This document shows positions 11,911 to 64,000 of a DNA stretch of 64,000 nucleotides, one piece after another. Made by a program: the position numbers and the translations under genes. The notes below the pieces were generated by a model. The model was not told the DNA's origin and did no database searches. It saw only the letters and a program-made list of their open reading frames with translations. Source of the DNA: an uncultured Bacilli bacterium (GTDB taxonomy: Bacteria > Bacillota_I > Bacilli_A > RF39 > UBA660); contig CAKOLK010000001.1 in the NCBI GenBank assembly GCA_934096275.1, forward strand, positions 15,876 to 79,875, written 5' to 3'. The stretch's first letter is position 1. Each line of letters starts with the position of its first letter.

Positions 11911-12171
11911 TTAGGAATAAAAAATAAAAAAAATACGAAAAATGTCGTATTGCTTTTTAATAATCTTTTTATAAATACCTTTATCACTAAAATCAATCAT
12001 ATCATTCAATTTCTTAATATTTATTTTAGATAACTCTTTTTTAATTTTTTCAAGTATTTTAACATCATTTAAATCTTTTGTGTATACATTAGGAATAGCT
12101 AACGTTTTATACTCAAATGGTTTATTTTCATATTTGTTAGTACATTTATTAATTACTAATAAAGCTTTCAA
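11911..12171 (-). CDS. doubtful small ORF (86 aa, TTG start only)
   Basis: ORF-track entry only. Lys-rich, with no SD seen. Confidence 0.15.
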   Translation of the reverse strand: MKALLVINKCTNKYENKPFEYKTLAIPNVYTKDLNDVKILEKIKKELSKINIKKLNDMIDFSDKGIYKKIIKKQYDIFRIFFIFYS

Positions 12172-12180
12172 GACTGTCCG

Positions 12181-13243
12181 TCAATCAGTAAGTTGATATG
12201 GTTGTTCCGAAGATCCATTTCCACTTGAAATCTTCACGTTAAATGAAAGACTTAGGACTGGGCGCACGGCATACTCGTTGTATTCGACGTTGCCGAAGTA
12301 GACGCTACCGTCATCATTAACAAGGAAAGCGAGGCGATCAGCTTCCGAAACCTGTGGAAGTAACCATGTAGTTACACTTTTATCTAACCAATTATTTGCT
12401 GTTTTACAATTTACAGAAGAAATATACTTATATAAACTGTTTGTACATTCTTTTGAAGCCGCATATCCATAGTCACTCGCATACATTAATGCTATTTTTT
12501 TATTTGCATCATTTTGTATTATTGGATTTGTTACATAATAATATCCTGTTCTATTTGCTTCATTTTTTCTTTCGTATTGCCACATTACATCCGATATCAC
12601 ACTTGCTTCTTTGTATCCTCCAAGATAATATTTTGTTGTTCCAATCATGTTTTTTGCATCACTTGTTAATGTATTATAATAATCATTATTTAAATATGTA
12701 TTTAATGTTCCTGTTACCCAATTGTTATACGTTTCAGTTGTTGTATCTTCTGTTTTATTCCAATATTTATTTCCTATTGAAGTATCTTTTATTATTTTAA
12801 TTCTATTTTCTACATTGCCATCTGTATCCTCGGTTGGTATTATTCCTATTATTCTCCATACTTCATTATTAAAAGTTACATAATTGTTTACATTTCCTCC
12901 ACGATATCTATACTCTGTTGCAAATCTTTCATCCACTTGAAGTGTATCATCTATTTCATGGGTTACTTTTTCTAATCCTCCTGTTCCTACATTAGATTCC
13001 GCAAAGTATAAGGCATTGTCTTTAGCTTTAACATATATTTTGATAGTATTCTTTGATTCTATACTACTACTCCATTTTGCATATGATGTATTTGTATAAT
13101 TATAAGAAATAATACCCGTTAATAAAAGTACAAAAATACCTATTAATGATAATAGATATTTATTATACTCTTTTACATCTTTAAATAAAGGGTTTATCTT
13201 ATAAGTATTTTGCCCCCCCCCCATACGAATATTTGTTTTCCAT
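12181..13243 (-). CDS. poly-G-gated surface-protein family, member 1 (short class); phase-OFF from the SD-proximal start in this assembly
   Basis: Signal anchor YLLSLIGIFVLLLTGIISYNY+TNTSYAKWSSS, then a ~280-aa domain shared with members 2-4 (TEYRYRGG..NNYVTFNNE.WRIIGIIPTEDT; KKIALMYASDYGYAAS; VRPVLSLS). GGAGG (13251-13255) lies 7 nt before the ATG at 13243. From that ATG the G10 tract reads MENKYSYGGGAKYL-stop. The long ORF is in frame only with ATG 13257 (inside the SD) or with the TATG at the tract edge. Confidence 0.8.
13213..13222 (-). repeat. homopolymeric G10 tract (C10 on the plus strand) in codons 8+ of member 1
   Basis: Counted by hand: tg-cccccccccc-atacg. Confidence 0.85.
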
Positions 13244-13273
13244 AATTTTACCTCCATAGTTTCTTATAAGTTA

Positions 13274-13609: not shown

Positions 13610-13664
13610 ATATATAATATACTACTTTTTGTAGTTTTATACAAGTGTTTTACTTGTTTTTTTG

Positions 13665-15305
13665 TTATCTTCCTCCAGAAGAACCTCCACCACCGAAGGA
13701 ACCTCCTCCTCCGCCACCTGAAGAGAAGCCACCTCCTCCAGATGAGTATGACTCTGCAGCACTTCTAGCGGAGTTTGCACTTGATATTCCTGAAGTATAG
13801 ATTGTATTCATAAGTAGAATATCATTATATGTATCATCTGTAATAACATCTGGATATAAGTTTTTAAACTCTTTTGCAACTTTATCTGCCATACCAAATA
13901 GTTGAGCAAATATTAAGTAATCTTGCCATAAGTGTACTTCAATTGGCATCTTTTCATACATTCTAGCAAAGTCTTTGAAGTATTTTTTAAGTCCTTTTAG
14001 ATATATTACATCAGTATATATACTATCATCAAAAACATAATAAGTTTTTGTAAATAGGAACTTCTTTTGTTTAAATGTTGTAATATTATTATTACTAACT
14101 AAATTATTTTCTTCATTATTTAACACTTTATCAAAATGTCCTAGAACTTTTTCATAATGTTTACTACAATAAGATTTAAACTCATTCTTTTCTAGAATAC
14201 CATCTTTACTTGCTTCATACATCATATTAAACATACTTAACTCATCTAAATCAGTTGGTCTTTTTGCAGGATCAAATACAATTACACTATTCTTACCATT
14301 TTTATTAGTAGTAACTATTTCCTCTTTTATCCATTTAAGAAGATAACAACCTAAAAGATCAGTATTTCTTTTTAATAAATAGTTCTTACTAGCTAAGTAA
14401 TATGCTTTTTTAAGATCTTTATTACATGGTATATCCCTAAAATAATTTACATCTTTTGGTATTGTTTTATTATCTTTGAATATGTATTTTTTACCACCAA
14501 AGATAGCTACTAGAATAGGAATAAGTATTACTAAAATCATTACTATAAAGATTATGAAGTCATAAACCCAAGAAAGATCTATAGAATCATCATCGTCATA
14601 ATCATATTCAAATGAACCTTCTTTTGCTTTTCCTGATACATCATCAAATGATGTGAAGTAATCATAACTATTAGTGGTATTAAATGTATTAAGTGGGAAC
14701 TTAACTAGTGCTACTACATATTGATTACTAAGTCCGTATTCTGTAGTAAGTTCTATGTACCCATCTTTTACATAAGCATAACCTTTATAACCATAACCCC
14801 ATACTGCTAAATCATTTGGAAAATTATAATAACTTTTTATTTTAATATCAAAGTAATCAGCGCTAGTTTTTGGTATAAATGTATTATATAATACTTGAGC
14901 ATCTGATACATTGAATATAATATTATTTATATTATATGTCACAGTAAACTTATGTCTTTTAAAGTCTCCTTTTCCAAAACATAGTTCTAATCCATCCTCA
15001 AGATAATTTATACCATACTTACCACTTTTTTGACTTAGACTAGCACTTACATCCCAGTGACTCAAACTAGTCATTTCTTTACCATCCATTAGTACTTTAT
15101 AATTACTAATAGTGGTATTTCCCATATTTTTAAATGTAGTGTACCATTCACTACCAGAGTCTGCTTTTACATCCCATGTTTCAGTAACATTAGCAGTCCC
15201 TTCTTTTGTGATATAAATATCCATATTTCTACTATAAATATTATCTGCATAAACAGAAAGTGGAAATAAGAATAAAACAAGTAACAAATATTTTAATTTT
15301 TTCAT
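13665..15305 (-). CDS. DUF2207-family membrane protein with a Gly/Ser-rich C-terminal tail
   Basis: Signal peptide, extracellular N-domain (DIYITKEGTANVTETWDV), TM segments, and the tail SSGGGGFSSGGGGGGSFGGGGSSGGR. It is adjacent to LemA, the usual pairing. Confidence 0.75.
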   Translation of the reverse strand: MKKLKYLLLVLFLFPLSVYADNIYSRNMDIYITKEGTANVTETWDVKADSGSEWYTTFKNMGNTTISNYKVLMDGKEMTSLSHWDVSASLSQKSGKYGINYLEDGLELCFGKGDFKRHKFTVTYNINNIIFNVSDAQVLYNTFIPKTSADYFDIKIKSYYNFPNDLAVWGYGYKGYAYVKDGYIELTTEYGLSNQYVVALVKFPLNTFNTTNSYDYFTSFDDVSGKAKEGSFEYDYDDDDSIDLSWVYDFIIFIVMILVILIPILVAIFGGKKYIFKDNKTIPKDVNYFRDIPCNKDLKKAYYLASKNYLLKRNTDLLGCYLLKWIKEEIVTTNKNGKNSVIVFDPAKRPTDLDELSMFNMMYEASKDGILEKNEFKSYCSKHYEKVLGHFDKVLNNEENNLVSNNNITTFKQKKFLFTKTYYVFDDSIYTDVIYLKGLKKYFKDFARMYEKMPIEVHLWQDYLIFAQLFGMADKVAKEFKNLYPDVITDDTYNDILLMNTIYTSGISSANSARSAAESYSSGGGGFSSGGGGGGSFGGGGSSGGR

Positions 15306-24110: not shown

Positions 24111-24764
24111 ATGAATTTATACGATAATTTAAATAACAACAACAATAATAGTAATAATAACAATAATCAAAACGGGTTTGATATTTATAAACAAAATAAT
24201 TATAATAATCAATATAATAACCAACAATTCTATCAAGTATATAATGATAGTTTTAAAAATACTAAGTATAAAAAAAGACCTAGTGCAGGAATGGTAGTAC
24301 TTATTGTTATACTTTGCTGTGTAGGAATTGGGCTTGTTCAAGGACTTCTTTCACTTAAGCCAACTTTAGATATGGTAAATACTGCTAAAGTTGGAAGATT
24401 TCAAGATAAAGCATCTGATCTTGTTACTACTGCTAGATCATATATTGTTTCTAATAACATACAAGAAAGTGGAAACTTTGTATTTACGATTGGTAATAAA
24501 AATGCTACTTGGTATCCAAAAAATGGTTCATCAAAAACAATAACATTGTATGAAGATTTAATAGAAAGTCCATTTGGTAATAAGTATAAAACTGCTTTTG
24601 TAAAAGTAGAATATAATCACTCTACTTATTATGCAGAATACTACTTATACTTAAGTGATGGAAAATATTGCTTTAATGGTATAAAGGATGATAAATTAAA
24701 TAAGGAAGAAAGTTTATCTAAAGATTGCAAAAACTTTATATCTAACCCATCAACTGGGTATTAA
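24111..24764 (+). CDS. membrane-anchored protein with an Asn/Gln-rich N-terminus, hypothetical
   Basis: Low-complexity N-rich head, one TM helix (GMVVLIVILCCVGIGLVQGLL), then a ~130-aa extracytoplasmic domain. Confidence 0.55.
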   Translation: MNLYDNLNNNNNNSNNNNNQNGFDIYKQNNYNNQYNNQQFYQVYNDSFKNTKYKKRPSAGMVVLIVILCCVGIGLVQGLLSLKPTLDMVNTAKVGRFQDKASDLVTTARSYIVSNNIQESGNFVFTIGNKNATWYPKNGSSKTITLYEDLIESPFGNKYKTAFVKVEYNHSTYYAEYYLYLSDGKYCFNGIKDDKLNKEESLSKDCKNFISNPSTGY

Positions 24765-26242: not shown

Positions 26243-26352
26243 AATACCATCCTTTCTTTTAGGATAGTTTTTAATAACAAAAAAACTAATCCGTATCACG
26301 AATTAGTTATTTATCAAACTCGAAACTATAAAAGTTCAAGTATATTTACTTA

Positions 26353-26429
26353 TGGTAGCGACGGAGGGGATCGAACCCCCGACCTTCCGGGTATGAACCG
26401 GACGCTCTAGCCAGCTGAGCTACATCGCC
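26353..26429 (-). tRNA. tRNA-Met (anticodon CAT), elongator-like; tRNA-Ile2 (lysidine) not excluded
   Basis: Reverse complement GGCGATGTAGCTCAGCTGGCTAGAGCGTCCGGTTCATACCCGGAAGGTCGGGGGTTCGATCCCCTCCGTCGCTACCA. It folds as a cloverleaf (D stem GCTC/GAGC, anticodon stem TCCGG/CCGGA, T loop TTCGATC) with an encoded CCA. It lacks the three G:C pairs of initiator tRNA. Confidence 0.9.
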
Positions 26430-26487
26430 ATGAAAAGTAAGCAATATAAATATAGCATATTTTTTTTACTTTTTCAATATCTTTTTG

Positions 26488-35757: not shown

Positions 35758-36462
35758 TTAACTAAGTAGTTTAATTAACATTGGTCCAAGTAACAGTAAT
35801 AGTAATAATGGTATAAAAAATATTACTGATACTATACTTATTTTTACTGGCATTTTACTAATTATTGCTTTAGTCTCTAATACTCTTTTTTCTCTTAAAT
35901 AGTCTATTTGGTTATACATAGTTTCCACTATATCATTACCAAAAGTATTAGCTTGTTGAATATTTAATATTATATTATTTACTGTATCACTAGGTATTCT
36001 TTTTCTTAAATCCTCTAAAGAACTATTTAGATCTTTTCCAAGTGTTATATCTTTTAATACTTTTTGAATCTCTAGTGATAAAGATGAATCTATATTTCTT
36101 GAAGTTATTTCTAGTGATGTTTTAATAGTCCTTCCTGCCTCAAGAGAAAGCGCAAACACTTCAAAGAAATAAAGAGCATCTTGTTCTAGTACTTTTCTTT
36201 TTTCATTTATTTTAGTATCTAGTACAATTGGTATAAATAATACATATACTAAAAATGCAATAATTGGTGCGAGTAAGTAACCAAAACTCAAGAAATATAA
36301 TATCACAAAAAAGACTAAAATAGAAGACACTAATCTAATATTTAATAATTTTATTGCATCATATTTAGAGTCTATTCCTAAATATGAAACTTTTTCTTGC
36401 ATCTTTTTAATTTGTTTTGCACTATATATTTTATATTCTATAATATTTTTTTTATTTCTCAT
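35758..36462 (-). CDS. tadC: Tad/type II secretion F-family inner-membrane protein (TadC-like)
   Basis: Polytopic GspF-like protein at the distal end of the Tad operon. Confidence 0.65.
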   Translation of the reverse strand: MRNKKNIIEYKIYSAKQIKKMQEKVSYLGIDSKYDAIKLLNIRLVSSILVFFVILYFLSFGYLLAPIIAFLVYVLFIPIVLDTKINEKRKVLEQDALYFFEVFALSLEAGRTIKTSLEITSRNIDSSLSLEIQKVLKDITLGKDLNSSLEDLRKRIPSDTVNNIILNIQQANTFGNDIVETMYNQIDYLREKRVLETKAIISKMPVKISIVSVIFFIPLLLLLLLGPMLIKLLS

Positions 36463-36463
36463 G

Positions 36464-37465
36464 TTACCACTCTCTTATCTTTACTATTTTCTTTACTAGT
36501 ACTATGTATATTATATATATTAGAATTATTAAAACTAATATTATATTACCAAGTGGCTCTTTAATAAGGGGTATAAAGTAAGTAGGATCCATAAAATAAA
36601 TAAGTACAAATATTATAAATGGAATAGCAACAAGTACTTTAAATACAAAATTAGATAGTGCAAGGGTTGAGTTCATTTCATCTTTTATTCTTTTTCTTTC
36701 TATAAAGCTTCTTTCAATCGAAGAAAATATCTTAGTAATTTTACCACCAGTTTCATTTAGTATTATTAAAGATGATGCCATATATTTTACTTCTTCTAAT
36801 TTAACACGAGAAGCAAATCTATCAAACACTACCTCTAATTCCAAACCATAAGTTAAATCAATTAATATTTTTTTAAATTCATTACTAATTGGACCTTCTA
36901 ATTCTGTTGATACTAACTCTACTGCTTGCATTATACTTCTTCCAGATTTAAAAGCATTATTCATAATAATAACTGCTTTTAAAAAATCTTGTTCTATTCT
37001 TTTTTCTTCTTTCTTTTCTCTTATTTTTAAAAACACATCAAGAATAAAGAAACCAAATAAGAATGATATTAGTATTTGAAAAAACGAAAACATTTTAAAC
37101 TTTAATATGTTAGATATTATACTTAAAAGTACTGCAAGTATTGAGAATAATATCTTTTTAGATATAAAATCCATACTAGTTTGTTTATGGGTATCGTCTA
37201 CCACTACGAATTTTTCATATTTTTTGCTATAGTCATTACAAACTTTACTTTTACTAATAGTTTTACTAATTGATTTAATAACTGAGTAATATAAGTTTTG
37301 TAGTTTTTCTATAAATGATATTGGTTTATCTGATAAAGCTGTAATAGAAAAACTAGATATTCTTTTTTCTTTTGATATTGAATTAAGTATTTTTAAAGCA
37401 AGTAAAAAGACAATAATTATTACTAAAATTATTATAAATTGTAAGGTAATATATAATTTTTCCAT
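36464..37465 (-). CDS. tadB: Tad/type II secretion F-family inner-membrane protein (TadB-like)
   Basis: GspF-like cytoplasmic domain (AFKSGRSIMQAVELVSTELEGPISNEFKKIL) between TM segments. Confidence 0.7.
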   Translation of the reverse strand: MEKLYITLQFIIILVIIIVFLLALKILNSISKEKRISSFSITALSDKPISFIEKLQNLYYSVIKSISKTISKSKVCNDYSKKYEKFVVVDDTHKQTSMDFISKKILFSILAVLLSIISNILKFKMFSFFQILISFLFGFFILDVFLKIREKKEEKRIEQDFLKAVIIMNNAFKSGRSIMQAVELVSTELEGPISNEFKKILIDLTYGLELEVVFDRFASRVKLEEVKYMASSLIILNETGGKITKIFSSIERSFIERKRIKDEMNSTLALSNFVFKVLVAIPFIIFVLIYFMDPTYFIPLIKEPLGNIILVLIILIYIIYIVLVKKIVKIREW

Positions 37466-37484
37466 AGTTATTGTCTCCTTTCTA

Positions 37485-38822
37485 TTACATTAATTTTTCA
37501 AATATATCATCTACATCTGTTATACCTTTGCTTTTGATCTTACTATATACTTTAGGAACATACTTGTATAAAACAAATGAACCATTTACTTCACCACTTT
37601 CAGTAAGACCTTTTTGTTTGAATGTAAATATTTCTTTTAAATTAATTCTATCATCTTTTAGTCCACATACTTCACATATTGAAGTAATCTTTCTTTTACC
37701 ATCTGATAATCTTTCTATATTAACTACTATATCAATAGCATTTTCTATATATTCTCTTATTGCTAGTACTGGTATTTGAATACCTGCCATAAGTACCATT
37801 GTTTCAAGTCTATTTAATGCATCTGATGCTCCATTAGCATGTAGTGTTGATAAAGAACCTTCATGTCCTGTATTCATTGCTTGTAACATGTCAAATGCTT
37901 CTTTACCACGTACTTCTCCGACGATTATACGATCAGGTCTCATACGAAGAGAATTTATTACTAAATCTCTTATTGTTACTTCTCCTTCTTTTTCATAATT
38001 CATTGTTCTAGTCTCTAAAGAAATAACATGATTTTGTTTTAGTTTTAACTCTGCTGCATCTTCAATTGTAATAATTCTTTCGTCTCCCGGTATGAATGAT
38101 GATAAAACATTAAGTACTGTAGTTTTACCAGAACCAGTTCCACCACATACTAATATATTAAGTTTAGCTCTTACACAAGCATCTAAGAATCTTGCCATAT
38201 ATGGTGTAAATGTACCATTTCTAATTAAGTCATCCGCAGTAGATAAGTTTTCTTTAAACTTTCTTATAGTAAGCACTGGCCCATTAAGAGCAAGCGGTGG
38301 TATTACAGCATTAATTCTAGATCCATCACTAAGTCTTGAGTCAACCATAGGATTAGCTATATCTATAGTTCTTCCAAGTGGTTGAATCATTCTTTGAATT
38401 GTTCTTATAATATGTTCATCATTTATAAAAGATACTGATTCATCCTTAATAATCTTACCATCTATTTCAATATAGATTTCATCCGGTGCATTAACCATTA
38501 TTTCAGTAATACTTTTATCATCTAATAATTCAGTAATTGGACCATATCCATTTATTTCATTTTCAATTAAATTAAATATATGGTTTCTTTCTAAATTAGT
38601 TAAATCATAACCTTCGAGTGATGTATTAATCTCATCATTAATGTATTCTTCAAGATACTTACTATCTGATAAGTCATTATCTATTATATTTTGTATTATT
38701 TTATTTCTTAAAGAATCTAATAAGTTTTTATCTTTAAAAACACTGTAATCACTAACTTCAGAATTAATGTAATTACTTTTTTTATTTTCTATTTCAAATA
38801 AATCAGAAAGTGTTTTTCTCAT
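37485..38822 (-). CDS. cpaF: CpaF/TadA family pilus-assembly ATPase
   Basis: Walker A VCGGTGSGKTT, Asp box ERIITIEDAAEL, His box ...TGHEGSLSTLHAN. Confidence 0.9.
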   Translation of the reverse strand: MRKTLSDLFEIENKKSNYINSEVSDYSVFKDKNLLDSLRNKIIQNIIDNDLSDSKYLEEYINDEINTSLEGYDLTNLERNHIFNLIENEINGYGPITELLDDKSITEIMVNAPDEIYIEIDGKIIKDESVSFINDEHIIRTIQRMIQPLGRTIDIANPMVDSRLSDGSRINAVIPPLALNGPVLTIRKFKENLSTADDLIRNGTFTPYMARFLDACVRAKLNILVCGGTGSGKTTVLNVLSSFIPGDERIITIEDAAELKLKQNHVISLETRTMNYEKEGEVTIRDLVINSLRMRPDRIIVGEVRGKEAFDMLQAMNTGHEGSLSTLHANGASDALNRLETMVLMAGIQIPVLAIREYIENAIDIVVNIERLSDGKRKITSICEVCGLKDDRINLKEIFTFKQKGLTESGEVNGSFVLYKYVPKVYSKIKSKGITDVDDIFEKLM

Positions 38823-39565
38823 TTAGACACCTCCTCAATAAGTTTTTTTGCAATCAATTCATAATGTTTATTATCTTTTCTATTATTTAATAAAATAGGT
38901 ATTTGTCCTGATGATATTATTTTATCTATTTTACTAATATGAAGTGTTTTAGGTATAGTAAAATCTATATTAGATTTAATAATAGTTCTCATGTCATAAG
39001 AATTATAATAGTTTCTACCTAGTATTGATTCATTTAATACAGTAGAATAATTAGTATAATTAGCATCTTTTAATATTGACACAAAAGTTCTAGTATTTTT
39101 AAGTGAATATAAATCATTACTAAATAGGACTAATATACTATCAGAATTATCAAATAAAATAACATTAGTTTCATTTAAAACATGAGTAGTATCTATAAGA
39201 ATAGCATCATATTTATATAAAACACTATCTAAGATTAAAGGAATATATTTAGAATCAATCTTATTAGCTTGTCTAGGATCTTTTGGAGCAGAAATTATAT
39301 CAATATTATCATTATATTTATAGATATAGTCTTCAACTTTTTCATACCTATTATTAGATAAATCAAGTACTAAATTAAAAACTGTTTTATCACATTTTAA
39401 GTTTAAAGAAAGAGCAATATCTCCCCCAAATAAGTCAAAATCAATAATTAAAACTTTATATCCAAGTAAATGGTAAGATCCTGCTAAATTAAGAGTAGTA
39501 ATAGTTTTTCCTGCACCACCCGTTGTGGAAGTAATCGATATAATTTTTCCTTTATCCTTTTTCAT
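38819..39565 (-). CDS. ParA/MinD-like ATPase of Tad loci (TadZ/CpaE-like)
   Basis: Deviant Walker A ISITSTTGGAGKTITTLNLA. It lies directly upstream of cpaF with a 4-nt overlap. Confidence 0.7.
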   Translation of the reverse strand: MKKDKGKIISITSTTGGAGKTITTLNLAGSYHLLGYKVLIIDFDLFGGDIALSLNLKCDKTVFNLVLDLSNNRYEKVEDYIYKYNDNIDIISAPKDPRQANKIDSKYIPLILDSVLYKYDAILIDTTHVLNETNVILFDNSDSILVLFSNDLYSLKNTRTFVSILKDANYTNYSTVLNESILGRNYYNSYDMRTIIKSNIDFTIPKTLHISKIDKIISSGQIPILLNNRKDNKHYELIAKKLIEEVSK

Positions 39566-39567
39566 AA

Positions 39568-39927
39568 TTAACCCTTCTTTATTCTTATTTTATTGTTTGA
39601 ATCAACATATCCTGTATAAACAGAATCTAAGTTGTATTTTTTAATTCCTATAATAGAACCAAATATTGAATCCACTTCTTTTTTTAGATGTACTTCACTA
39701 TTTGTAATATTTATTATTTTAATATCGGCATCATTATCTAATATTAGTTGTTCTATTTCTATTTTGTCTTTATTCATTAAAACATAATTCATTGCAATTG
39801 AGCTAAGATTATCAAGTTTATTATCATTTATTTTAATATAACAAGTATCAAATACATAAGCAAATATTGCAATAAATACTGGTATTAAAAAGACAAATAA
39901 TACTAATGACTGACCTTTATTGTTCAT
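39568..39927 (-). CDS. TadE/TadG-like pseudopilin
   Basis: MNNKGQSLVLFVFLIPVFIAIFAYVFD: a Flp-type leader ending in G, then a hydrophobic helix. Confidence 0.6.
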   Translation of the reverse strand: MNNKGQSLVLFVFLIPVFIAIFAYVFDTCYIKINDNKLDNLSSIAMNYVLMNKDKIEIEQLILDNDADIKIINITNSEVHLKKEVDSIFGSIIGIKKYNLDSVYTGYVDSNNKIRIKKG

Positions 39928-40264
39928 TAAATAACACCCTCTTGGTAGTTATCTTATATGGATTTTCAAAAAATGATGATGCGAATGGTGTAATAAGATT
40001 TACTTTTTTAGTAAGTACTATTTCAAGTTTATCTCCTTGATAATTATACTTCATCGTAGTATCAGAATCTAATAATTTATTTATCTCATCATAACTTTTT
40101 CCATTTTGTTGATAAATAGATACCTCATCCATTACTCCCTCAAGACTGTTTTTGTTATAAAAAACAAAAGCAAAGTCTATTACTATGAATAGTATCATAA
40201 TAATAATTGGAAGTATAATTACAAATTCCACCAAAGCTTGACCTTTATTATTTTTTTTCAACAC
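39917..40264 (-). CDS. TadE-like pseudopilin
   Basis: ..KKNNKGQALVEFVIILPIIIMILFIVIDFAFVF. The start is placed at GTG/TTG after GGAGAAGG, which gives a leader like its neighbours. The ORF-track ATG at 40306 would overlap flp by 59 nt. Confidence 0.6.
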   Translation of the reverse strand: MLKKNNKGQALVEFVIILPIIIMILFIVIDFAFVFYNKNSLEGVMDEVSIYQQNGKSYDEINKLLDSDTTMKYNYQGDKLEIVLTKKVNLITPFASSFFENPYKITTKRVLFNEQ

Positions 40265-40451
40265 AATAGCCTTCTCCAGCTTTAGCACCTTTTTGATACT
40301 CTTCACCCACTAAAGCACAAGATGATTTAGTAATAGAATCTTTTAAATAACCTCCTAAAAATGTTACTAAAGATATAGCAAGTACACTTATTAATGCAAT
40401 TATTAAAACATATTCTACTAAAGCTTGACCTTTATTATTTAGTCTCATCAT
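40248..40451 (-). CDS. flp: Flp-family type IVb pilin
   Basis: MMRLNNKG|QALVEYVLIIALISVLAI: the G/xxxxEY Flp processing motif. 67 aa. Confidence 0.8.
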   Translation of the reverse strand: MMRLNNKGQALVEYVLIIALISVLAISLVTFLGGYLKDSITKSSCALVGEEYQKGAKAGEGYCVEKK

Positions 40452-40540
40452 ACATCACCTATTTTCCTACATTAATTTTATTATTTTTTTAGGCTATTGT
40501 CAAGATGTAAAAAATGATATAGAATAAAAATGGTGATAAG

Positions 40541-40849
40541 ATGTACTTAGTAAATAACAATAATAAGTTAAAGATAAATAAAATAAATAAATTAATTGGT
40601 TTAATGTTCAGAAAAGAACCTATTAAAGAAGGATATATACTTTATAATTGCAATGCCATTCATACTTTTTTTATGAGACAAAATATTGATGTAATTATGA
40701 TTGATAAAAATAATAAAATAGTTTTAATAAAAGAAAATGTTAAAAAAAATAAAATAATAATTAAAAAAGAAGGAATACATACTTTAGAATTACCATTAGG
40801 TATATCTAAAGAATATAAAGTTAATGACATAATAAAAATAATAGATTAG
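40541..40849 (+). CDS. DUF192 domain protein
   Basis: ...GLMFRKEP..EGYIL..CNAIHTFFMRQNIDVIMIDKNNKIV.......HTLELPLG pattern. Confidence 0.6.
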   Translation: MYLVNNNNKLKINKINKLIGLMFRKEPIKEGYILYNCNAIHTFFMRQNIDVIMIDKNNKIVLIKENVKKNKIIIKKEGIHTLELPLGISKEYKVNDIIKIID

Positions 40850-40866
40850 CGTCTATTATTTTTAGT

Positions 40867-41959
40867 TTAAATCGATAGTTGATATGGATCTTCATATGTT
40901 CCAATGCCTGAAGATATTCTTACATTTGAAAAGAGAGTTAGAACTGGTAAAATGGCAAGTTCTCTTTTTCTGACATCGCCCCCATTACCAATACCACCAG
41001 TAGGACCCAAGTGAAAAACAACTCCATTACCACCGGCACATGGTGAAAGCATCCATGTAACCTGGCTCTTATCTAACCAATTATTTGGTGTTTTACAATT
41101 AATAGAAGTATCGTAGCCACTTAAACTGCCTGAGCATTCTTTTGATGCAGCATATCCATAATCACTTACATACATTATTGCTATTTTCTTACTTGCATCA
41201 TTTTGCATTATTGGGTTTGGTTTATAATAATACGCGCTTTCATATGCATTATTCTTTCTTTCATATTGCCACATCTCATTTGCATTTGCATATATATTTA
41301 TATATCCACCAAGATAATATTTTGTTGTTCCTATCATGTTTTTAGCATCATTAGTTAATGTATTATAATAATCGTTGTTTAAATATGTGTTTAATGTTGC
41401 TCCTGTCCAGTCGTTAAATTTTTTACCACTGTCATCACATTTTTCATAATCACTAGTTGTGCAATTGTTCCAAAAATATTCTCCAAGTGAATTATTTCTT
41501 ATTATTTTAAATCTATTTTCTACATTACCATTTGTGTCTTCAGTTGGTATTATTCCTATTATTCTCCATAATTCATTATTAAATGTCACGTAGTTATTTA
41601 CTACTGAGTCTCCTCCACGATATCTATATTCTGTTTTAAATCTTTCATCTACTTGTAATGTACTATCTATTTCATGTGTAATTTCTTCAAGCCCACCAAT
41701 TCCTACATTATCTTTTGCAAACGCTAAAGCATCTTTTTCAGTCTTGACACTAAGTTTTAATATATTTTTTGATTCCACACTACTACTCCATTTTGCATAT
41801 GATGTGTTTGTATAATTATAAGAAATAATACCACTAAGTAATAGCACAAAAATACCTATTAATGATAATAGATATTTATTATATTCCTTTATATCTTTAA
41901 ATAAGGGGTTTATCTTTCTAGTATTTTGCCCCCCCCCCATACGAATATTTGTTTTTCAT
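40867..41959 (-). CDS. poly-G-gated surface-protein family, member 3 (short class); phase-OFF from the SD-proximal start
   Basis: GGAGG (41967-41971), 7 nt, ATG at 41959, then MKNKYSY plus G10 gives ...GGGAKY-stop. The ORF-track protein starts at the TATG on the tract edge (41940). Confidence 0.8.
41929..41938 (-). repeat. homopolymeric G10 tract of member 3
   Basis: Hand count: gcc + cccccccc + at gives 10 C. Confidence 0.85.
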
Positions 41960-44534: not shown

Positions 44535-45597
44535 TTAATCTATTGATAATTGGTATGGTTCAGAACTTGTTCCTACTCCTCCAGATATTTTTGCATTTGA
44601 TGATAAAGTTAATGTTGGGCGTATTGCATACTTATAGACACCAACATCAAAATTACTGACATTACCTGTTGAAGAAATATAAAACGCATAAATTGAATAA
44701 CTTGAATACTGTGAAAGCAACCACGTATCTTCACTTTTGTCTATCCAATTGTTTGGTGTTTTACAATTTGTATCTTGATTATATTCAGATATGTCGCTTG
44801 TACATTTCTTTGATGCAGCATATCCATAATCACTTATATACATTAGTGCTATCTTTTTAGAAGCTTCATTTTGCATTACTGGATTTGTATCATAATAGTA
44901 ATTACTTTTATTTGCCTCATTTTTTCTTTCATATTGCCACATTACATCTGATGTCATTTTTGAATCTTTATATCCTCCGAGATAGTATTTTGTTGTTCCT
45001 ATCATACTTTTTGCATTACTTGATAAGGTATTATAATATGTAGTATTTAAATATGTATTTAGTGTTGCTATTAACCAGTTATTAGAATTATCAGTGTTAT
45101 TACGTGTGCTATTCCAATAAAAATTTCCAATAGATTCATCTTTTATTATTTTAAATCTATATTCTACATTATCAGATGTATCTTCAGTTGGTATTATTCC
45201 TACCATTCTCCATAACTCATTATTAAATGTCACGTAGTTATTTACATTCCCTCCGCGATATCTATATTCTGTTTTAAATTTTTCATCTACTTGTAATGTA
45301 TTATCTATTTCATGTGTAATTTCTTCAAGTCCACCAATTCCTACATTATCTTTTGTAAACTCTAAAGCACTCTTCCCAGTTTTAATATGTATTTTGATAA
45401 TATTTTTTGATTCAGTACTGCTACTCCATTTTGCATATGATGTATTTGTATAATTATAAGATATTATTCCTGAAAGTAATAACACAAAAATACCTATTAA
45501 TGATAATAGATATTTATTATACTCTTTTATATCTTTAAATAAGGGGTTTATCTTATAAGTATTTTGCCCCCCCCCCATACGAATATTTGTTTTCCAT
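44535..45597 (-). CDS. poly-G-gated surface-protein family, member 4 (short class); phase-OFF from the SD-proximal start
   Basis: GGAGG (45605-45609), 7 nt, ATG at 45597, then MENKYSY plus G10 gives ...GGGAKYL-stop. The long ORF is in frame only with ATG 45611 (inside the SD) or the TATG. Confidence 0.8.
45567..45576 (-). repeat. homopolymeric G10 tract of member 4
   Basis: Hand count: gcccc + cccccc gives 10 C. Confidence 0.85.
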
Positions 45598-45626
45598 AGT
45601 TTTACCTCCATACTTTCTATAATCTC

Positions 45627-46956: not shown

Positions 46957-47511
46957 TCAAACATTTTGTATTTCTCTCTTAAAATCTTCTTTTAATATTT
47001 GCATATATATACTATCATGATAGATTCCTTCAAGATAGTGAGATTGTTTTCTTACTCCTAGTTCTTTGAAACCACATTTTAGATAGCATTTTTTAGCACG
47101 TTCATTGGTATCTAACAGTTCAAGCATGATGTTATTAAGATTTAAATGATTAAATGCATAATCAAGTAATAGATTGATTGCTTCAGTTCCATAGTCTTTT
47201 TCTCTTTCATCATTTTTACCTATCATAATACCAAGTGTTGCAGTTTTATTTATATGATCAATATTCATAAGTGATATATTACCTATTAGTTCATCATTTG
47301 ATAGTTTAACTATAGAAAGGTATACTTTATCATCTTTTCTTGCTCTTTCTACAAAGTCTTTTTCATCTTCAAGAGTAAATATTTTACTATATTGATCTAA
47401 GTATTTAGATGTTTCATAGTCATTGATCCATTCAGTAAATGAAATATAATCATCTTCACTAAATGGTGATAAGTAAATACTTTTTCCTATTATTTTTTTA
47501 TAATGTTTCAT
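46957..47511 (-). CDS. GNAT family N-acetyltransferase (RimJ/RimL-like)
   Basis: ...GYGTEAINLLLDYAFNHLNLNNIMLELLDTNERAKKCYLKCGFKE. Confidence 0.75.
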   Translation of the reverse strand: MKHYKKIIGKSIYLSPFSEDDYISFTEWINDYETSKYLDQYSKIFTLEDEKDFVERARKDDKVYLSIVKLSNDELIGNISLMNIDHINKTATLGIMIGKNDEREKDYGTEAINLLLDYAFNHLNLNNIMLELLDTNERAKKCYLKCGFKELGVRKQSHYLEGIYHDSIYMQILKEDFKREIQNV

Positions 47512-49241
47512 TATTTTACCTCTTTTATATATAAATCTTTTAATTGATTTTCATCAACATAATTTGGAGCATCAGTCATTAAACAACTAGCACTAGTAGT
47601 CTTAGGAAATGCAATAACATCACGAATATTTTCTGTATTTGTAAGTAGCATTGTTAATCTATCTAAACCTAGCGCAAGTCCTCCATGTGGTGGTGTTCCA
47701 TATTTGAATGCTTCAAGTAGGAAGCCAAACTTTTCATTTTTTTCTTCTTCAGTTAACCCAATTGTTTCAAATATTTTACTTTGTAGATTCTTATCATGAA
47801 TTCTTATTGATCCTCCACCTGCTTCATACCCATTTATTACTATATCATAAGCATCTGATAAGCATTTTAATGGATCAGTATTTAATAGATTTATATCACT
47901 ATCTTTTACTTTAGTAAATGGATGATGAAGTGCAACATATCTTTTTTCTTCTTCATCATATTCAAACATTGGAAAATCTACTACCCAAAGTAATTTATAA
48001 TCATCTTTATTAATCAAATTAAGATCATTTGCAAGCTTTAATCTTAAAGCACCAAGTGATTGTTTCACTACATCATAAGATCCTCCGGATAATAAAACAA
48101 GATCATTTTCTTCTAAAGAAAGGAGGTTGATTAAATTATTTTGAACATCTTCATTCATAAACTTAATTATACTTCCATTTAATGTTTCATTATATTTTAA
48201 GTAAACTACTCCAGTACTTTTATATTTTTTTACAAATTCACTCAAACTATCTAAATCTTTTCTTGAAAACTTATCACTAGCATTTTTAACTACTAAACAG
48301 TTTACTATTTCTTTATCCTTAAACATAGGAAATTCTGTATCTTTGAATATACTAGTAACATCATTTATTTTCATATCAAATCTTAAATCTGGTTTATCAC
48401 TTCCATATAAATCCATAGCCTTTTTATATGGCATTCTATCAAGTGGTAGTTTGATATCTATTCCTTTTATTTCTTTGAATAGTTTTTGTAGTAGTCCTTC
48501 GGTTATACTAATAACATCATCTTGGTTTACAAAACTCATTTCCATATCTATTTGAGTAAATTCTGGTTGACGATCAGCACGTAAATCTTCATCTCTAAAG
48601 CATTTTGCTATTTGGAAATATCTTTCAAAGCCTGATACCATAAGTAATTGTTTAAATATTTGAGGAGATTGAGGTAGTGCATAAAACTTATTTTTGTTTA
48701 CACGAGATGGCACTAAATAGTCTCTTGCTCCTTCAGGAGTCGATTTACATAGTATTGGTGTTTCTACTTCAAGAAAATGATTATCTGATAAGTAGTTTCT
48801 TGCTATCATACATATTTTATGTCTTGTGATAAACTTACTAGATAAATCTTCTCTTCTAAGATCTAGATAACGATATTTTAGACGTGTTTCTTCATTAGCA
48901 TTAGTGTTGTTATTAACCTCAAAAGGTGTATCGAGTGATTCATTTAAGACTTCTAAAGATGAAACTTCTACTTCAATATCTCCGGTTAATAAATTAGGAT
49001 TTTTACTAGTTCTTTCTATTACTTTACCAAACACCTTAATTACACTTTCATTTTTTAATGATGATAACTCTTCGAAAAATGTTTTTTCTGGAGATACCAC
49101 TAATTGTATAATTCCACTGCGGTCACGAAGATCGATAAATAGCATTCCTCCAAGGTTTCTTTTTTTACTAATCCATCCATATAATTCTACTTCTTGATTA
49201 ATATTTTTGATACTTAAATCAGTATTAAATATTTTTTTCAT
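47511..49241 (-). CDS. aspS: aspartate--tRNA ligase
   Basis: OB-fold N-terminus (V.L.GW....[14 protein letters not shown]), class II motifs ([16 protein letters not shown]; GGGSIRIH; GLALGLDR). The start is at the ATG after AAAGGAA (MKKIFNT...). Confidence 0.93.
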
Positions 49242-49261
49242 TTTATCATTCCTTTCAATAA

Positions 49262-49455
49262 AAAAACAGTTATATCCCAAAGGGACGAATAACTGTTAAA
49301 TCCGCGGTACCACCCAATTTATTATATAAAATATAATCTCTTTATTTATAACGGCAATCAACCGGCTTGTTCTACTTAATTCCTCAAGCACTCATGGTGT
49401 CTTTCATATTTAATTTTATACTAGTTCTCACCAAACACTAACTCTCTTAAATAAA
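49262..49455 (-). promoter_or_regulatory. T-box riboswitch leader of aspS (specifier GAC)
   Basis: The minus strand carries AGAGAG/GGUGAGA stem I elements and GAAAGACAC, which contains the GAC (Asp) specifier followed by A. The T-box core is AAUUGGGUGGUACCGCGG, and the terminator is AACAGUUAU...AUAACUGUU+UUUU. Confidence 0.8.
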
Positions 49456-49506
49456 CTTAAATATTACTTTTCCAATCAACGTTTATGTATAGATTATAGA
49501 ATATTT

Positions 49507-51838
49507 TTAGTTTGTTGTCAAGACTGCACGAGTTGAGTAGTCACTGTGCGCTTCACCATCGCTGGTGTTGAAGAAGAACGCGCCGGCGTAATCACCATTG
49601 TAATAGATCCCACCACGGAAGAGCCAAGGGATGAAATTGTTAGAGAAAACAGCTTGATCTGAATACCATGATTTAGTGGTTGAAGATGTTGGTGACATTT
49701 CAATTGTGGCGTCTCCTAACTTTCCTCTTGTATATTCTGTTTTACTTGTTCCATAACTATATTTATCATAATATTTCTTGTTTGGGAATGCATATGTTCC
49801 TGTAAATGATGTTTTATCATTTCCTAAATATCCTGTAAATGCTGAATTTTTATTACTAGATGTTGAATATCCACTCATCTGTTGTCCATTACTATGTACC
49901 ATATTACCCATCACGTATTCACATGTTCCACCACTCATGTCATATACTCCATATACATTTCCTGTTGTTGATGCGCTTTGTCCTAAAGTTGTTGTGTATC
50001 CATTACATGTTGAACCCCTACTTGCTGAACCTTCACTTTGTGGTCCACATCCTGTTGTATTTGTATTTGCACTATTTATTGCTATTTCTTTATTTATTCC
50101 ATATTTACTATGTGATAGATATGTTACTGCTCCCCATTCCATATTCTTCATCATATGAGTTTCAGCGGTTGTTGCAATACCATATTGGTTGCCACTTTCT
50201 CTCATCTTTTGGATTCCATTAAAGAATGTTCCTACTTGTGCTCCTCTCCATGATGTTACGTTTGGTTTTATTTGAGGTCTTATTGTTTGTAGGTTGCAGT
50301 CTGTACCTATTGCTACATAGTTAGTAGGTGTACATGTAGTATCACTTGATACTTCAAACTTTCCTACCCATATTCCTGTTAATCCTTCCCCTGTTTCTCT
50401 TACATTGTTATCATTTTTATCCCACCAGAATGCTGGATGCGTATAGGTTGATGTTCCTGCTTTTAATGATCCATTTGTACTATCTGTACATGTTTCTGAT
50501 GTACTACTAGTTCCAGTTACTGCGTCTACACATTTTATTGTACCACTACTATTTGTACCGCTTTCAAATTTTATTTTGATTTCTTCTGGTGTATTAGTGT
50601 TTAAATATGTATATGTATATCTTGGTATCCACACCCACATTGTATTGATACTTAGCATTGGTATCTCTGTTCCCGCATCTGCACTTACTATATCACTTCT
50701 TTTGCATACTGAACTACTGCAATTTTTTGTAGTTCCATCTTTTAGAGTTAACTTAGTCACAGGCACACCTTCTTTAGTATATTTATCAGCACTTGTTACG
50801 CTATGATTGCTAACTGAATTAATTTTATACATGGTACTACAAGTAGTGTTGTCTGTACAATGATATTTATCAATAACATCAGTATCAACATCATCATAAG
50901 ATGTATTTGTGAGTGTGTATAATCCTGTATCTTCATTAAATGTGTAAGATTTTCCAAACATGTAATTAGGTGGATAGAATTGTCCTATGGAATACATAGT
51001 ATAATCACTACCATCATAAGAATCTATAAAAAATGCTTTGTTAGAGCCAAATATATTAAACATGATTATGGCATATCCATATTCATCAATGTAATCGCTT
51101 AGTTTCATGCCATTGTTATCATATAAGTCTGAAAGAGATCCTTCTATTACTCCACTGCTGAAATCATAGTCTTCTTCCCATGTGTAATCATCATAGGACA
51201 ATAAGTTTACTTGACCATCCAATTGAGCCTCAGTTATGATAAGAGAACCGCTTGGACTTGATATATTATATATTCCAAATGCCATGTTATCAGTTTTATA
51301 ATATACCATTAAATTAACATAATCATATTCTGTGTTATTTATTGTAACTGGAGCATTCCAACCAAATTCAAGACTTGAAGATAAATTAAGCGAAATATTT
51401 TTATCAACTTTTTCTTTATACTTACTACTTAGCGCATCTGTTACTGTTACTGCGTTAGCCCACATTTTATTATTGTAATCATACCACTTATTAGACGCGT
51501 TTGAATTGGTTGCGTCTGCTTTTCTCCATACATTGTTATTACTATCATAATATACTGGTATCATATTACTTGTTAATACTGGTTTATTTGCACCGCTTGT
51601 ATCAAGGTTTACGTTGTTGCTTTTTACATAAAGTTTCAATACATTTTTAGATTCTACACTACTACTCCACTTTGCATATGATGTATTTGTATAATTGTAA
51701 GATATTATTCCCGAAAGTAATAGCACAAAAATACCTATTAATGATAATAGATATTTATTATACTCTTTTACGTCTTTAAATAAGGGATTTATTTTATAAG
51801 ATTTTTGCCCCCCCCCCGAACGAATTATTGTTTGTCAT
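49507..51838 (-). CDS. poly-G-gated surface-protein family, member 5 (long class); unambiguously phase-OFF in this assembly
   Basis: GGAGG (51846-51850), 7 nt, ATG at 51838, then MTNNNSF plus G10 gives ...GGGAKIL-stop. The main frame (..QKSYKINPLFKDVKEYNKYLLSLIGIFVLLLSGIIS..) is closed upstream by TGA and has no ATG/GTG/TTG before the anchor. The tract edge here is TTC-G, so no TATG exists. Confidence 0.8.
51808..51817 (-). repeat. homopolymeric G10 tract of member 5
   Basis: Hand count: gccc + ccccccc + g gives 10 C. Confidence 0.85.
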
Positions 51839-56373: not shown

Positions 56374-57969
56374 TTATTTTAACATTGATAATACTGAACG
56401 TGAAGCACGAGTGCTAATTGAAGAACCATCGCTAAAGTAAAAAGCGAATATACCGGCATAAGTTGTATGGCTATAAAGACCACCACGAACAAAAAATGAA
56501 TAAGTATCATATGGATAATATGTATAATCTTTATACCAACCACCATTTGAAAGTGAATTATTTTCTTGAATTTCTTGCGTTGAATCTCCAATTAGCCCTG
56601 AGCCATTTGTTGTTTTTTCTGAGTAATAATTATAATGATTATAATACTTTGATAGTGGATAGGTAGAAGTCCAGTTTTCAGCTTTACCAACTCCGAAACT
56701 ACTTGAACTTCCACTGCTCATTGTATAGTCCCATGCTCCTCCACTCATATCGTATATTCCTGTAATATTACCTGTTGTTGATGCAATTTTGTTCATATCT
56801 CTTGTTGTGCTTTTTGTGTTTGTATTATACTCAAGCAAATATCCATCGTATGTATAAAAACCATATGTATTATATTGTGTTGTTGATGTTTGATCTTCAT
56901 ATGTCTTATTTATTTCTGTTGATCCTCCAACATCTCCTCCACTTCTTCCAGTATAACATCCTCTTGAATTATTGATATTTATTTCTTTATTTATTCCGTA
57001 TTTAGAATGTGATAAATATGCTATTGCTCCCCATTCTATATTTTTGATCATGTGTATATCTATATCGTTTGTGTCTCCTGTTAGACTTCCATTCCAATTA
57101 AATGTTGTGCTATTGCTTTGTTCAAACCCATATATATTATTTGAGGCCTCCATTTGTCTTATGTCTTTAAACATGTATGATATTGTTTTATATCTTAGGG
57201 ATTGTACATCTGGTTTTATTATTATTATTGAATCTTCTGTAGAAGTTTTTGTTGGTATTGTTGTTGCACTATTTTCAAACTTGCCTACCCATATTCCTGT
57301 TAGTTCTTGGTCTCCAAAAGTAAATGCTGGATGAGTGCAAGTAGTAGAATTAGCTTCTAAATTAGCATTATTAACATATGTATTGAAACATTTTGCTGTA
57401 CCAGTGCTTTCTGTGCCACTTTCAAACTTTATATTTATATCTTGAGGTTTTATTGACGGAAAGATAGTATATTTATATCTTGGTATCCATACCCACATTG
57501 TATTTATATCATCCATTTTTATTTCTGTTCCTATATCTGCATTCAGATATTTTGTTCTGTTAGTAGAGCTTACTGTTACGGCGTTTGCCCACATCTTATT
57601 ATCATAATCGTACCATTGATACTTTTTACTGCTATTACTAACATCAGCTTTCTTCCATGATGAGCTTTCAGTGTCATAATATATTGGTATCATATTACTT
57701 GCAAGAAATGGCTTATTGGCTCCACTTGTATCTAAATTTGATTTTATATATAATCTTATAGTTTTGTTTGATTCAATACTACTACTCCATTTTGCATATG
57801 AGGTGTTCGTGTAATTATAAGAAATAATACCACTAAGTAATAACACAAAAATACCTATTAGTGATAATAGATATTTATTACAATCCTTTATGTCTTTAAA
57901 TAGGAGGGCTACTTTGCTAGTATCCCTTCCAAGCGAATATTTGTTTATTATATTTTTCACAGTCATCAA
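56374..57969 (-). CDS. surface-protein family member 6 (long class) with no poly-G tract and no shared promoter cassette
   Basis: MMTVKNIINKYSLGRDTSKVALLFKDIKDCNKYLLSLIGIFVLLLSGIISYNYTNTSYAKWSSS.... CTT GGA AGG GAT ACT AGC occupies the place of the tract. The body is homologous to member 5 (ANKP.L.SNMIP.YYD; MWVWIPRY.YT; THPAF; LTGIWVGKFE; MKN.EWGA..YLSHSKYGINKEI). Confidence 0.85.
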   Translation of the reverse strand: MMTVKNIINKYSLGRDTSKVALLFKDIKDCNKYLLSLIGIFVLLLSGIISYNYTNTSYAKWSSSIESNKTIRLYIKSNLDTSGANKPFLASNMIPIYYDTESSSWKKADVSNSSKKYQWYDYDNKMWANAVTVSSTNRTKYLNADIGTEIKMDDINTMWVWIPRYKYTIFPSIKPQDINIKFESGTESTGTAKCFNTYVNNANLEANSTTCTHPAFTFGDQELTGIWVGKFENSATTIPTKTSTEDSIIIIKPDVQSLRYKTISYMFKDIRQMEASNNIYGFEQSNSTTFNWNGSLTGDTNDIDIHMIKNIEWGAIAYLSHSKYGINKEININNSRGCYTGRSGGDVGGSTEINKTYEDQTSTTQYNTYGFYTYDGYLLEYNTNTKSTTRDMNKIASTTGNITGIYDMSGGAWDYTMSSGSSSSFGVGKAENWTSTYPLSKYYNHYNYYSEKTTNGSGLIGDSTQEIQENNSLSNGGWYKDYTYYPYDTYSFFVRGGLYSHTTYAGIFAFYFSDGSSISTRASRSVLSMLK

Positions 57970-63903: not shown

Positions 63904-64000
63904 ATTAGTCAAAAAGTTTTGAAAAGAAACTTTTAATCTTAGAAAATAAACTCACCTTTTCACTAGTTTTATATATTTTTTCTTGATGTATTAAATCTTT
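63904..64000 (-). CDS. 3' end of a gene running off the right edge (unknown product)
   Basis: Open minus-strand frame ...KDLIHQEKIYKTSEKVSLFSKIKSFFSKLFD-stop (TAA at 63904-63906). Confidence 0.3.

Follow-up and report, generated by a model that had tools for sequence, protein, structure and literature searches.

The GC-rich patch of a chromosomal DUF6273 protein in an uncultured Bacilli bacterium is very probably the variable region of a DGR target

The window, that is, the whole 64-kb stretch of DNA analysed here, belongs to a low-GC (∼26%) Firmicute chromosome with PolC and DnaE. One of its genes, termed member 1, carries a GC-rich patch, and we hold it to be highly probable that this patch is the variable region (VR) of a DGR target, a DUF6273 surface protein. 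We favour this reading because of the variation signature of the protein family, the homology of member 1 to targets of complete cassettes, and the diversification of a sister lineage. A first-pass annotation had proposed that the patch is a DGR target or a relic of one; the membership in DUF6273, the AAY-type variation and the homologues located beside adenine-specific cassettes all support that proposal.

Residues 165–337 of member 1 match Pfam DUF6273 (PF19789) with 23.3 bits (E=6.5e-5), the gathering threshold being 23.5 bits; the paralogues termed member 4 and member 3 score 21.6 and 18.0 bits, respectively, against the same threshold. Matches at E<=1e-3 are present in 36 of the 53 family members (best, 5e-7), and many homologues carry a precomputed PF19789 match. 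According to published work, DUF6273 is a C-type-lectin-like domain found in DGR targets and bears the VR at its C-terminus (PMC10743442, PMC11792537, bioRxiv 10.1101/2024.10.15.618418); the VR of member 1 corresponds to about positions 140–170 of the 172-position profile. The first-pass annotation had pointed to a C-terminal lectin-fold or DUF1566-like region. The VR is C-terminal in a domain described as C-lectin-like; that domain is DUF6273 and not DUF1566. The AlphaFold2 model of member 1 has a mean pLDDT of 48.6 and is too poor for judging the fold.

The patch differs from the remainder of its own gene in composition. Outside the patch the gene is 27.7% GC, and NNC codons number 15 of 302, compared to 14 of 28 within it (binomial P = 1e-11). 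Windows of 84 nt with >=50% GC make up 0.4% of those in the 64 kb, and they fall into six clusters, which correspond to the patches of members 1, 2 and 3, one tRNA-Met, one Gly-rich tail and the tail of gene 49507–51726. As related GC-rich features, 26328–26456 and 13650–13796 were ruled out: the former is the tRNA-Met (26353–26429, minus strand), which accounts for one of the clusters, and the latter is the Gly-rich tail. When the patches of members 1 and 2 are compared without gaps, 39 of the 84 positions differ (14, 17 and 8 at codon positions 1, 2 and 3); the count is right, yet not every pair of positions is homologous, because relative to the family scaffold each of the two is one codon short, at different places, so that about four middle codons are out of register. 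Over the 300 nt directly upstream of the patch, the same comparison gives 11, 12 and 23 differences, the usual third-position excess. The composition and codon counts reported for the patches of members 1 and 4 in the first pass were all reproduced, as was its observation that the differences between members 1 and 2 run in the reverse of neutral divergence.

Table 1. Positions in the window of member 1, its patch and flanks, and the corresponding features of its paralogues
Feature	Position	Strand	Description
Member 1 gene	12181..13257	(-)	358 aa; N-terminal membrane anchor and DUF6273-type domain; patch near the C-terminus
GC-rich 3' string GTGCGCCCAGTCC	12255..12267	(-)	Codons VRPV; exact copy in member 2
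Member 1 VR	12268..12351	(-)	28 codons, between TWLLPQ and VRPVL; 50.0% GC; 14/28 NNC; translation VSEADRLAFLVNDDGSVYFGNVEYNEYA
Conserved 5' VR flank	12352..12369	(-)	ACA TGG TTA CTT CCA CAG = TWLLPQ
Member 2 gene	32177..33739	(-)	520 aa; dockerin-like N-terminal part and same C-terminal domain as member 1
Member 2 VR and GC-rich string	32251..32347	(-)	VR 32264–32347, 54.8% GC, 14/28 NNC; string 32251–32263
Member 3 patch	40954..41040	(-)	Gene 40867–41940; 48% GC; 5/29 NNC; scaffold and GC string degraded (ILPVL)
Member 4 patch	44625..44708	(-)	Gene 44535–45611; 27.4% GC; 2/28 NNC

The whole domain is common to four minus-strand paralogues in the window, at 12181, 32177, 40867 and 44535; genes 49507 and 56374 have only the N-terminal anchor of the family in common with them. 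The four patches look like a series, members 1 and 2 being fresh, member 3 partly decayed and member 4 fully decayed. In nhmmer, the VR consensus matched the patch of member 3 only weakly, and that of member 4 resembles a VR whose composition has shifted by drift to the AT-richness of the genome. Just upstream of the member 2 ORF, 33818–33884 (minus strand) contains short out-of-frame matches to the N-terminal module (residues 1–24 of member 1). Because of these matches and the dockerin-like N-terminus, the 5' end of member 2 seems to be rearranged or frameshifted; related proteins are known at 520, 557 and 563 aa.

One further gene of the window has a GC-rich end of its own. The 739-aa protein of 49507–51726 (minus strand), which carries the family N-terminal anchor, has a GC-rich, NNC-rich tail at ∼49510–49640 that ends in ...PWLFRGGIYYNGDYAGAFFFNTSDGEAHSDYSTRAVLTTN; about 15 of its last 33 codons end in C. 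The paralogue 56374–57969 (minus strand) has a homologous tail in AT-rich codons (FVRGGLYSHTTYAGIFAFYFSDGSSISTRASRSVL), and Pfam identified no domain in either protein. The tail of 49507–51726 may be a second, different VR-like patch and represent a second type of DGR target. Between members 2 and 3, at 34317–40863 (minus strand), the window contains a tad/Flp-type pilus locus, which was read from Pfam matches on L005, a syntenic locus of 95% identity (weak Flp_Fap; TadE; ParA-like ATPase; T2SSE; two T2SSF). The T-box leader at 49278–49488 (minus strand; 130 bits), upstream of gene 47511–49280, is an ordinary feature.

The protein search returned 2177 relatives, nearly all of them from gut metagenome assemblies. 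In the best 120 of the 2177, a hypervariable block with a fixed scaffold, xSxxSxxAFxVxSxGxV(x)4-7VxxxExA, is located between WLLPQ and VRPVL, and the flanks on both sides are nearly invariant. Residues at the variable sites of the 120 homologues are mostly N/S/Y/D/G/R/F/L. The member 1 VR can be aligned to this block and to 15 distinct VR DNAs, which come from the window and from loci L001–L018, obtained via pattern scans and look-ups. At positions 1 and 2 of the variable codons of the 15 VR DNAs, A accounts for 41%, G for 27%, T for 21% and C for 12%; the residue most often encoded at the variable sites is Asn. At the third positions of the same codons, C occurs 83 times, T 76 times, and G and A three times each, so that C or T is found at 159 of the 165; just 7% of the third positions in the flanks are C. 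Scaffold codons such as TCA, TCC, GCT TTC, GTG, GAG and GCC show little or no change at any of their three positions across the 15 VRs. In the upstream flank, the per-site diversity is 0.27, 0.26 and 0.31 at codon positions 1, 2 and 3, respectively, and in the 5' flank TWLLPQ other copies use the rare codon CCG. Variation among the 15 VRs is thus confined to positions 1 and 2 of AAY-type codons, position 3 being almost always C or T and the scaffold constant or nearly so. We infer DGR overwriting because the synonymous scaffold sites are fixed on GC-rich codons despite the AT-rich genome; judged from the DNA, one common AAY-rich template that repeatedly overwrites its targets would hold such sites, which selection at the protein level would not, and we regard this as a strong argument.

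The length of the VR varies from 28 to 33 codons among the 15 VR DNAs, and nearly all of the length differences are located within the NNC run. L012, L013 and L015, which belong to one assembly and have similar coverage, carry 29- and 33-codon VRs; these derive either from one template repeat (TR) with slippage or from several TRs. Member 1 deviates from the family scaffold at several non-adenine positions. The indels of members 1 and 2 are at different places, therefore one TR could not write both in register. Since member 1 has its length and the codons GAC GGT in common with an L019-type template, the comparison suggests that it was written by a different TR variant. The gene bodies and C-terminal tails of the family are mosaic, and identical VRs occur in otherwise differing genes.

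Complete cassettes are present in sister lineages. The peptide translated from a hypothetical TR found two small ORFs, which are translated template repeats of such lineages, and none from the subfamily of member 1. The L021/L022 cassette consists of the target, the TR, one 136-aa MutS_I-like ORF, bAvd and an RVT_1 reverse transcriptase (RT); in its TR/VR core, all mismatches are at TR adenines. In L019/L020, the 3' end of the target is followed by a hairpin and by the TR, ∼130 nt past the stop codon; considering L035 as well, the TR lies 130–350 nt past the stop codon of the target. L019 and L020, which derive from two samples, differ at 14 of 565 nt; 13 of the differences fall within the VR, each of them at a TR adenine. 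The L019/L020 sister lineage is actively diversifying. With the L021 RT as the query, 4148 related RTs were obtained, often on contigs of 1–5 kb. L024, L028 and L030–33 have cassettes like that of L021/L022 with DUF6273-type targets, and L035 is another sister cassette, the target of which has LMYxSDYGxAAS and AVRPV in common with member 1. TRs with adenine-specific VR mismatches are present in the sister lineages L019/20, L021/22, L024 and L035. In BLASTP, member 1 matches the cassette targets of L021 (E=1e-27), L024 (3e-18) and L035 (7e-16), with the VRs in register.

Sequences just past the TR are also conserved. In L021, L024, L028 and L030, CTATGGGTTATGAACyAATAtGGTCATAAAGAAAAG is found 10–50 nt past the TR; a different conserved sequence, AAAGGACAAA ... 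GTTATACGTAAC, is present in L019 and L035. Both are probably part of the DGR RNA adjoining the TR, and they would make useful handles for further searches. The exhaustive phmmer search with P0121 yielded ∼20 further TR-ORFs of the WLRSP...VRPDL type.

These comparisons are consistent with the following mechanism. Member 1 is a membrane-anchored protein, the C-terminal DUF6273 domain of which ends in a putative loop-forming stretch. This stretch would be overwritten by cDNA from an AAY-rich TR; the DGR reverse transcriptase would misread the TR adenines and make codon positions 1 and 2 random, and the third position (C or T) and the scaffold codons would be copied faithfully. The expected outcome in a 26% GC genome is a patch of ∼50% GC, rich in NNC and NNT codons, that ends near a GC-rich string. 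Members 1 and 2 would have been written alike, presumably by TR variants of the family. Both the TR and the RT, for which a cassette of the MutS-like/bAvd/RVT_1 type is expected, would be outside the window or lost.

The window contains just two copies of the GC-rich string GTGCGCCCAGTCC, one each in members 1 and 2 and both on the minus strand; shuffled sequences predict 0.04 copies. It was found in 12 of the 12 VR loci of the metagenome scan, the pattern of which itself required the CCAGTCC part of the string. The equivalent string of L019 and L035 is followed by another ∼10 nt of TR/VR homology, which then ends, and the sister TR reads CCAGAC (VRPDL) where the VRs read CCAGTC. From its position, the string is a putative IMH-like element near the end of the TR/VR homology. 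The first-pass annotation had taken it as the 3' boundary of the patch; the string is indeed exact in members 1 and 2, but it is located inside the TR/VR homology, which in the sister cassettes ends ∼10 nt later.

Farther downstream, a GC-rich hairpin, GAGCGAGCCTGCAAGGTAAAATCTTGCGGCGAGC, is present ∼10 nt past the stop codon in L002, L008–L012, L014, L015 and L017; the genomic contexts differ, and no T run follows. Hairpins similar to GAGCGAGCCTGCAAGGTAAAATCTTGCGGCGAGC are located past the target stops of L019 and L035. After members 1 and 2 (12100–12180 and 32100–32176), the GAGCGAGCCTGCAAGGTAAAATCTTGCGGCGAGC-like hairpin is absent, and member 2 has a terminator only. The hairpin may be a DGR target-recognition element, in which case its distance to the VR (∼100 nt) would be unusually large.

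The first pass had reported no RT, Avd or template repeat in the window, and regex, tblastn and nhmmer searches confirmed this. Over 10.9 kb, L036 and the window are 100% identical, and L034 is from the same scaffold as L036; together they add ∼31 kb of the same strain (∼95 kb in all), in which no TR, RT or Avd was found either. Regex and tblastn searches for a DGR-type RT or Avd were negative in the window, L034 and L036, and tblastn with BPP-1 Brt and Avd and four RTs of the clade had no match in the window or in all family loci. With a reconstructed TR and two real sister TRs as nhmmer queries, only VRs were matched. A TR for members 1 and 2 was not found in 35 loci either. One N-rich run at 24125 was considered as a TR and ruled out; it is coding low complexity.

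The collection-wide scans gave a weak negative. A TR of the member 1 subfamily, which would end with GAG NNT GCC GTG CGC CCA G, was not found in any collection, several of the patterns being unfit for a TR. The scan of the genome collection, which yielded two VR genes only, required TAT at a codon that is actually a variable NNT, so a TR could not match. Likewise, the metagenome scan that required CCAGTCCT yielded 12 VRs and no TR, but the sister TRs read CCAGAC there and could not have matched. A TR-specific pattern also yielded no TR; one of its codons was set to GTC, for which the TR may have ATC, so a TR possibly could not match. Viral contigs had no match by DNA patterns or by the protein-based scan, and the phage collections had none. 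The subfamily ending E.AVRP occurs in none of the ∼20 additional TR-ORFs of the phmmer search.

In L028 (GCA_947628765.1), a cassette of MSL, bAvd and RT is located directly upstream of a gene pair encoding a SAM-methyltransferase and a pseudouridine synthase. In the strain of the window, the same gene pair (L036 4400–6810, 3–5.5 kb beyond position 64000 of the window) has an unrelated 153-aa ORF and a 380-nt gap upstream of it. No RT remnant was detected by tblastn at this cassette-equivalent site.

To compare alleles, sequences were clustered at 90% identity across samples. The member 1 cluster has two sequences with identical VRs, and the member 2 cluster has three, with one amino acid difference in the VR. 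In eight other clusters, the VRs are identical or differ by 1–3 residues, and clusters of 9–32 members show 0–3 point changes. L001, a related copy of member 2, differs from it at 2 of the 84 VR positions, no more than the flanks do. Population-level hypervariability of the VR was not seen in the clusters of members 1 and 2 and the eight others; members 1 and 2 have thus kept their present alleles over the recent past. The chromosomal locus of member 2 carries three unrelated VRs in three strains (the window, L007 and L005), the flanks being 93–95% identical and the sequence 3' of the VR near-identical. One of these VRs, that of L005, has decayed to AT-rich codons and its GC string is degraded. 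Member 1 is best described as a quiescent target, either remote or orphan.

Two accounts of its present state have to be weighed. In one of them, which we put close to an even chance, the patch is an orphan relic: the DGR was lost, or was never kept after VR-bearing 3' segments arrived by recombination, and the frozen patch drifts slowly toward AT. The frozen alleles agree with this account, as does the decay series that leads from members 1 and 2 to member 3 and then to member 4, with L005 as a further case; the mosaic gene bodies and C-terminal tails indicate that VR-bearing segments move by recombination, an unrelated ORF occupies the place where the relative L028 has its cassette, and phages that keep DUF6273 targets without a DGR have been described in a preprint (bioRxiv 10.1101/2024.10.15.618418). 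The sequence covered is, however, a small part of the genome, and the scaffolds of members 1 and 2 are still largely intact. That intactness is better suited to the other account, in which members 1 and 2 continue to be rewritten in trans by a DGR cassette located elsewhere in the genome or carried by a mobile element of the same cell; AT-biased mutation has eroded the GC-rich synonymous codons of member 4 and L005, and members 1 and 2 keep theirs. Chromosomal DGRs with remote targets >100 kb away from their RT have been documented (PMC5758913), rewriting has taken place at the member 2 locus between strains with 93–95% identical flanks, the short contigs of the related RTs fit a break-up of assemblies around variable DGR loci, and the TR could have escaped the scans with unfit patterns. 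Even so, a currently active remote target seems to us a possible but rather doubtful description of member 1, given that VR alleles differ little, if at all, from sample to sample, that the downstream hairpin is missing, that the scaffold of member 1 deviates and members 1 and 2 are in different registers, and that ∼95 kb of the strain hold no RT or TR. An orphan relic is somewhat more likely.

Explanations that dispense with a DGR fare much worse. Ordinary diversifying selection together with gene conversion among the paralogues could make use of the fact that the paralogues are many and mosaic and that identical VRs are found in genes otherwise different. We nevertheless consider it very improbable: selection on amino acids leaves unexplained the nucleotide-identical synonymous sites of the scaffold, the C or T third positions in a genome with 7% C at third positions, and the fact that adenine is more frequent than any other base at the variable sites, and the templated mechanism is directly seen in sister lineages. 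The patch is also a local GC island in an AT-rich genome, as a horizontally acquired GC-rich insert or a compositional accident would be. Such an origin has next to no probability, since the patch keeps the reading frame and each of its codons has a homologous counterpart in all paralogues, and its GC excess falls on specific codon positions, with the NNC excess quoted above.

A more elaborate scenario, which we consider speculative and unlikely, would have one chromosomal DGR of the MutS-like/bAvd/RT class serve at least six dispersed DUF6273 paralogues. It would write length variants of 28–33 codons in the AAY run, as if by slippage on a repeated template; homing would be episodic and leave most targets seemingly frozen between bursts, and the hairpin would mark competent targets and be lost from some others, including members 1 and 2.

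DUF6273 targets of DGRs are known from gut phages, namely the tentaclins, the Mtd-like second targets of nd4/nd12, and those of Toutatisvirus and of the Faecalibacterium prophages Lelie, CP11, Roos and Pioen (PMC10743442, PMC11792537, bioRxiv 10.1101/2024.10.15.618418). Like them, the present proteins have the VR at the C-terminal end of DUF6273 and vary at AAY codons, and some elements keep targets without a DGR. Different from the phage targets, those described here are cell proteins with a membrane anchor, encoded on the chromosome of an uncultured low-GC Bacilli bacterium; several dispersed paralogues are found per genome, with neither phage context nor an adjoining cassette.

Chromosomal DGRs are known to include ones with MutS-like accessory genes and ones with remote targets (Wu et al. 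2018, PMC5758913). The cassettes of the sister lineages, with target, TR, MSL, bAvd and RT, resemble Architecture D of that work, and multiple dispersed targets per genome are also found in Treponema denticola (TvpA and seven others, as remote targets). Unlike in these systems, no cassette was found for the member 1 subfamily or genome, and the VR length varies among the copies (28–33 codons, inside the AAY run). With the BPP-1 prototype (Mtd/TR/Avd/Brt), the family has in common that the VR is C-terminal, here in a domain described as lectin-like, that the changes are specific to adenines, and that the VR has a GC-rich string at its 3' end. In BPP-1, the hairpin is 4 bp past the VR and is needed for efficient homing (PMC3240598), whereas the hairpin of this family is ∼100 nt downstream, after the stop codon, and missing in members 1 and 2; the window also has no detectable sequence similarity to Brt or Avd.

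With the present family, the list of DGR targets gains a chromosomal, multi-paralogue family of cell-surface DUF6273 proteins from uncultured gut Bacilli. The fresh-looking copies (members 1 and 2) beside decayed ones (members 3 and 4) provide a usable way to recognize DGR products with no retroelement in view, the signature being nucleotide-identical scaffold codons, third positions fixed on either of C and T, and an island of high GC where the genome is AT-rich. Should the cognate cassette come to light, the family could show how frequently remote targets are rewritten in natural gut populations.
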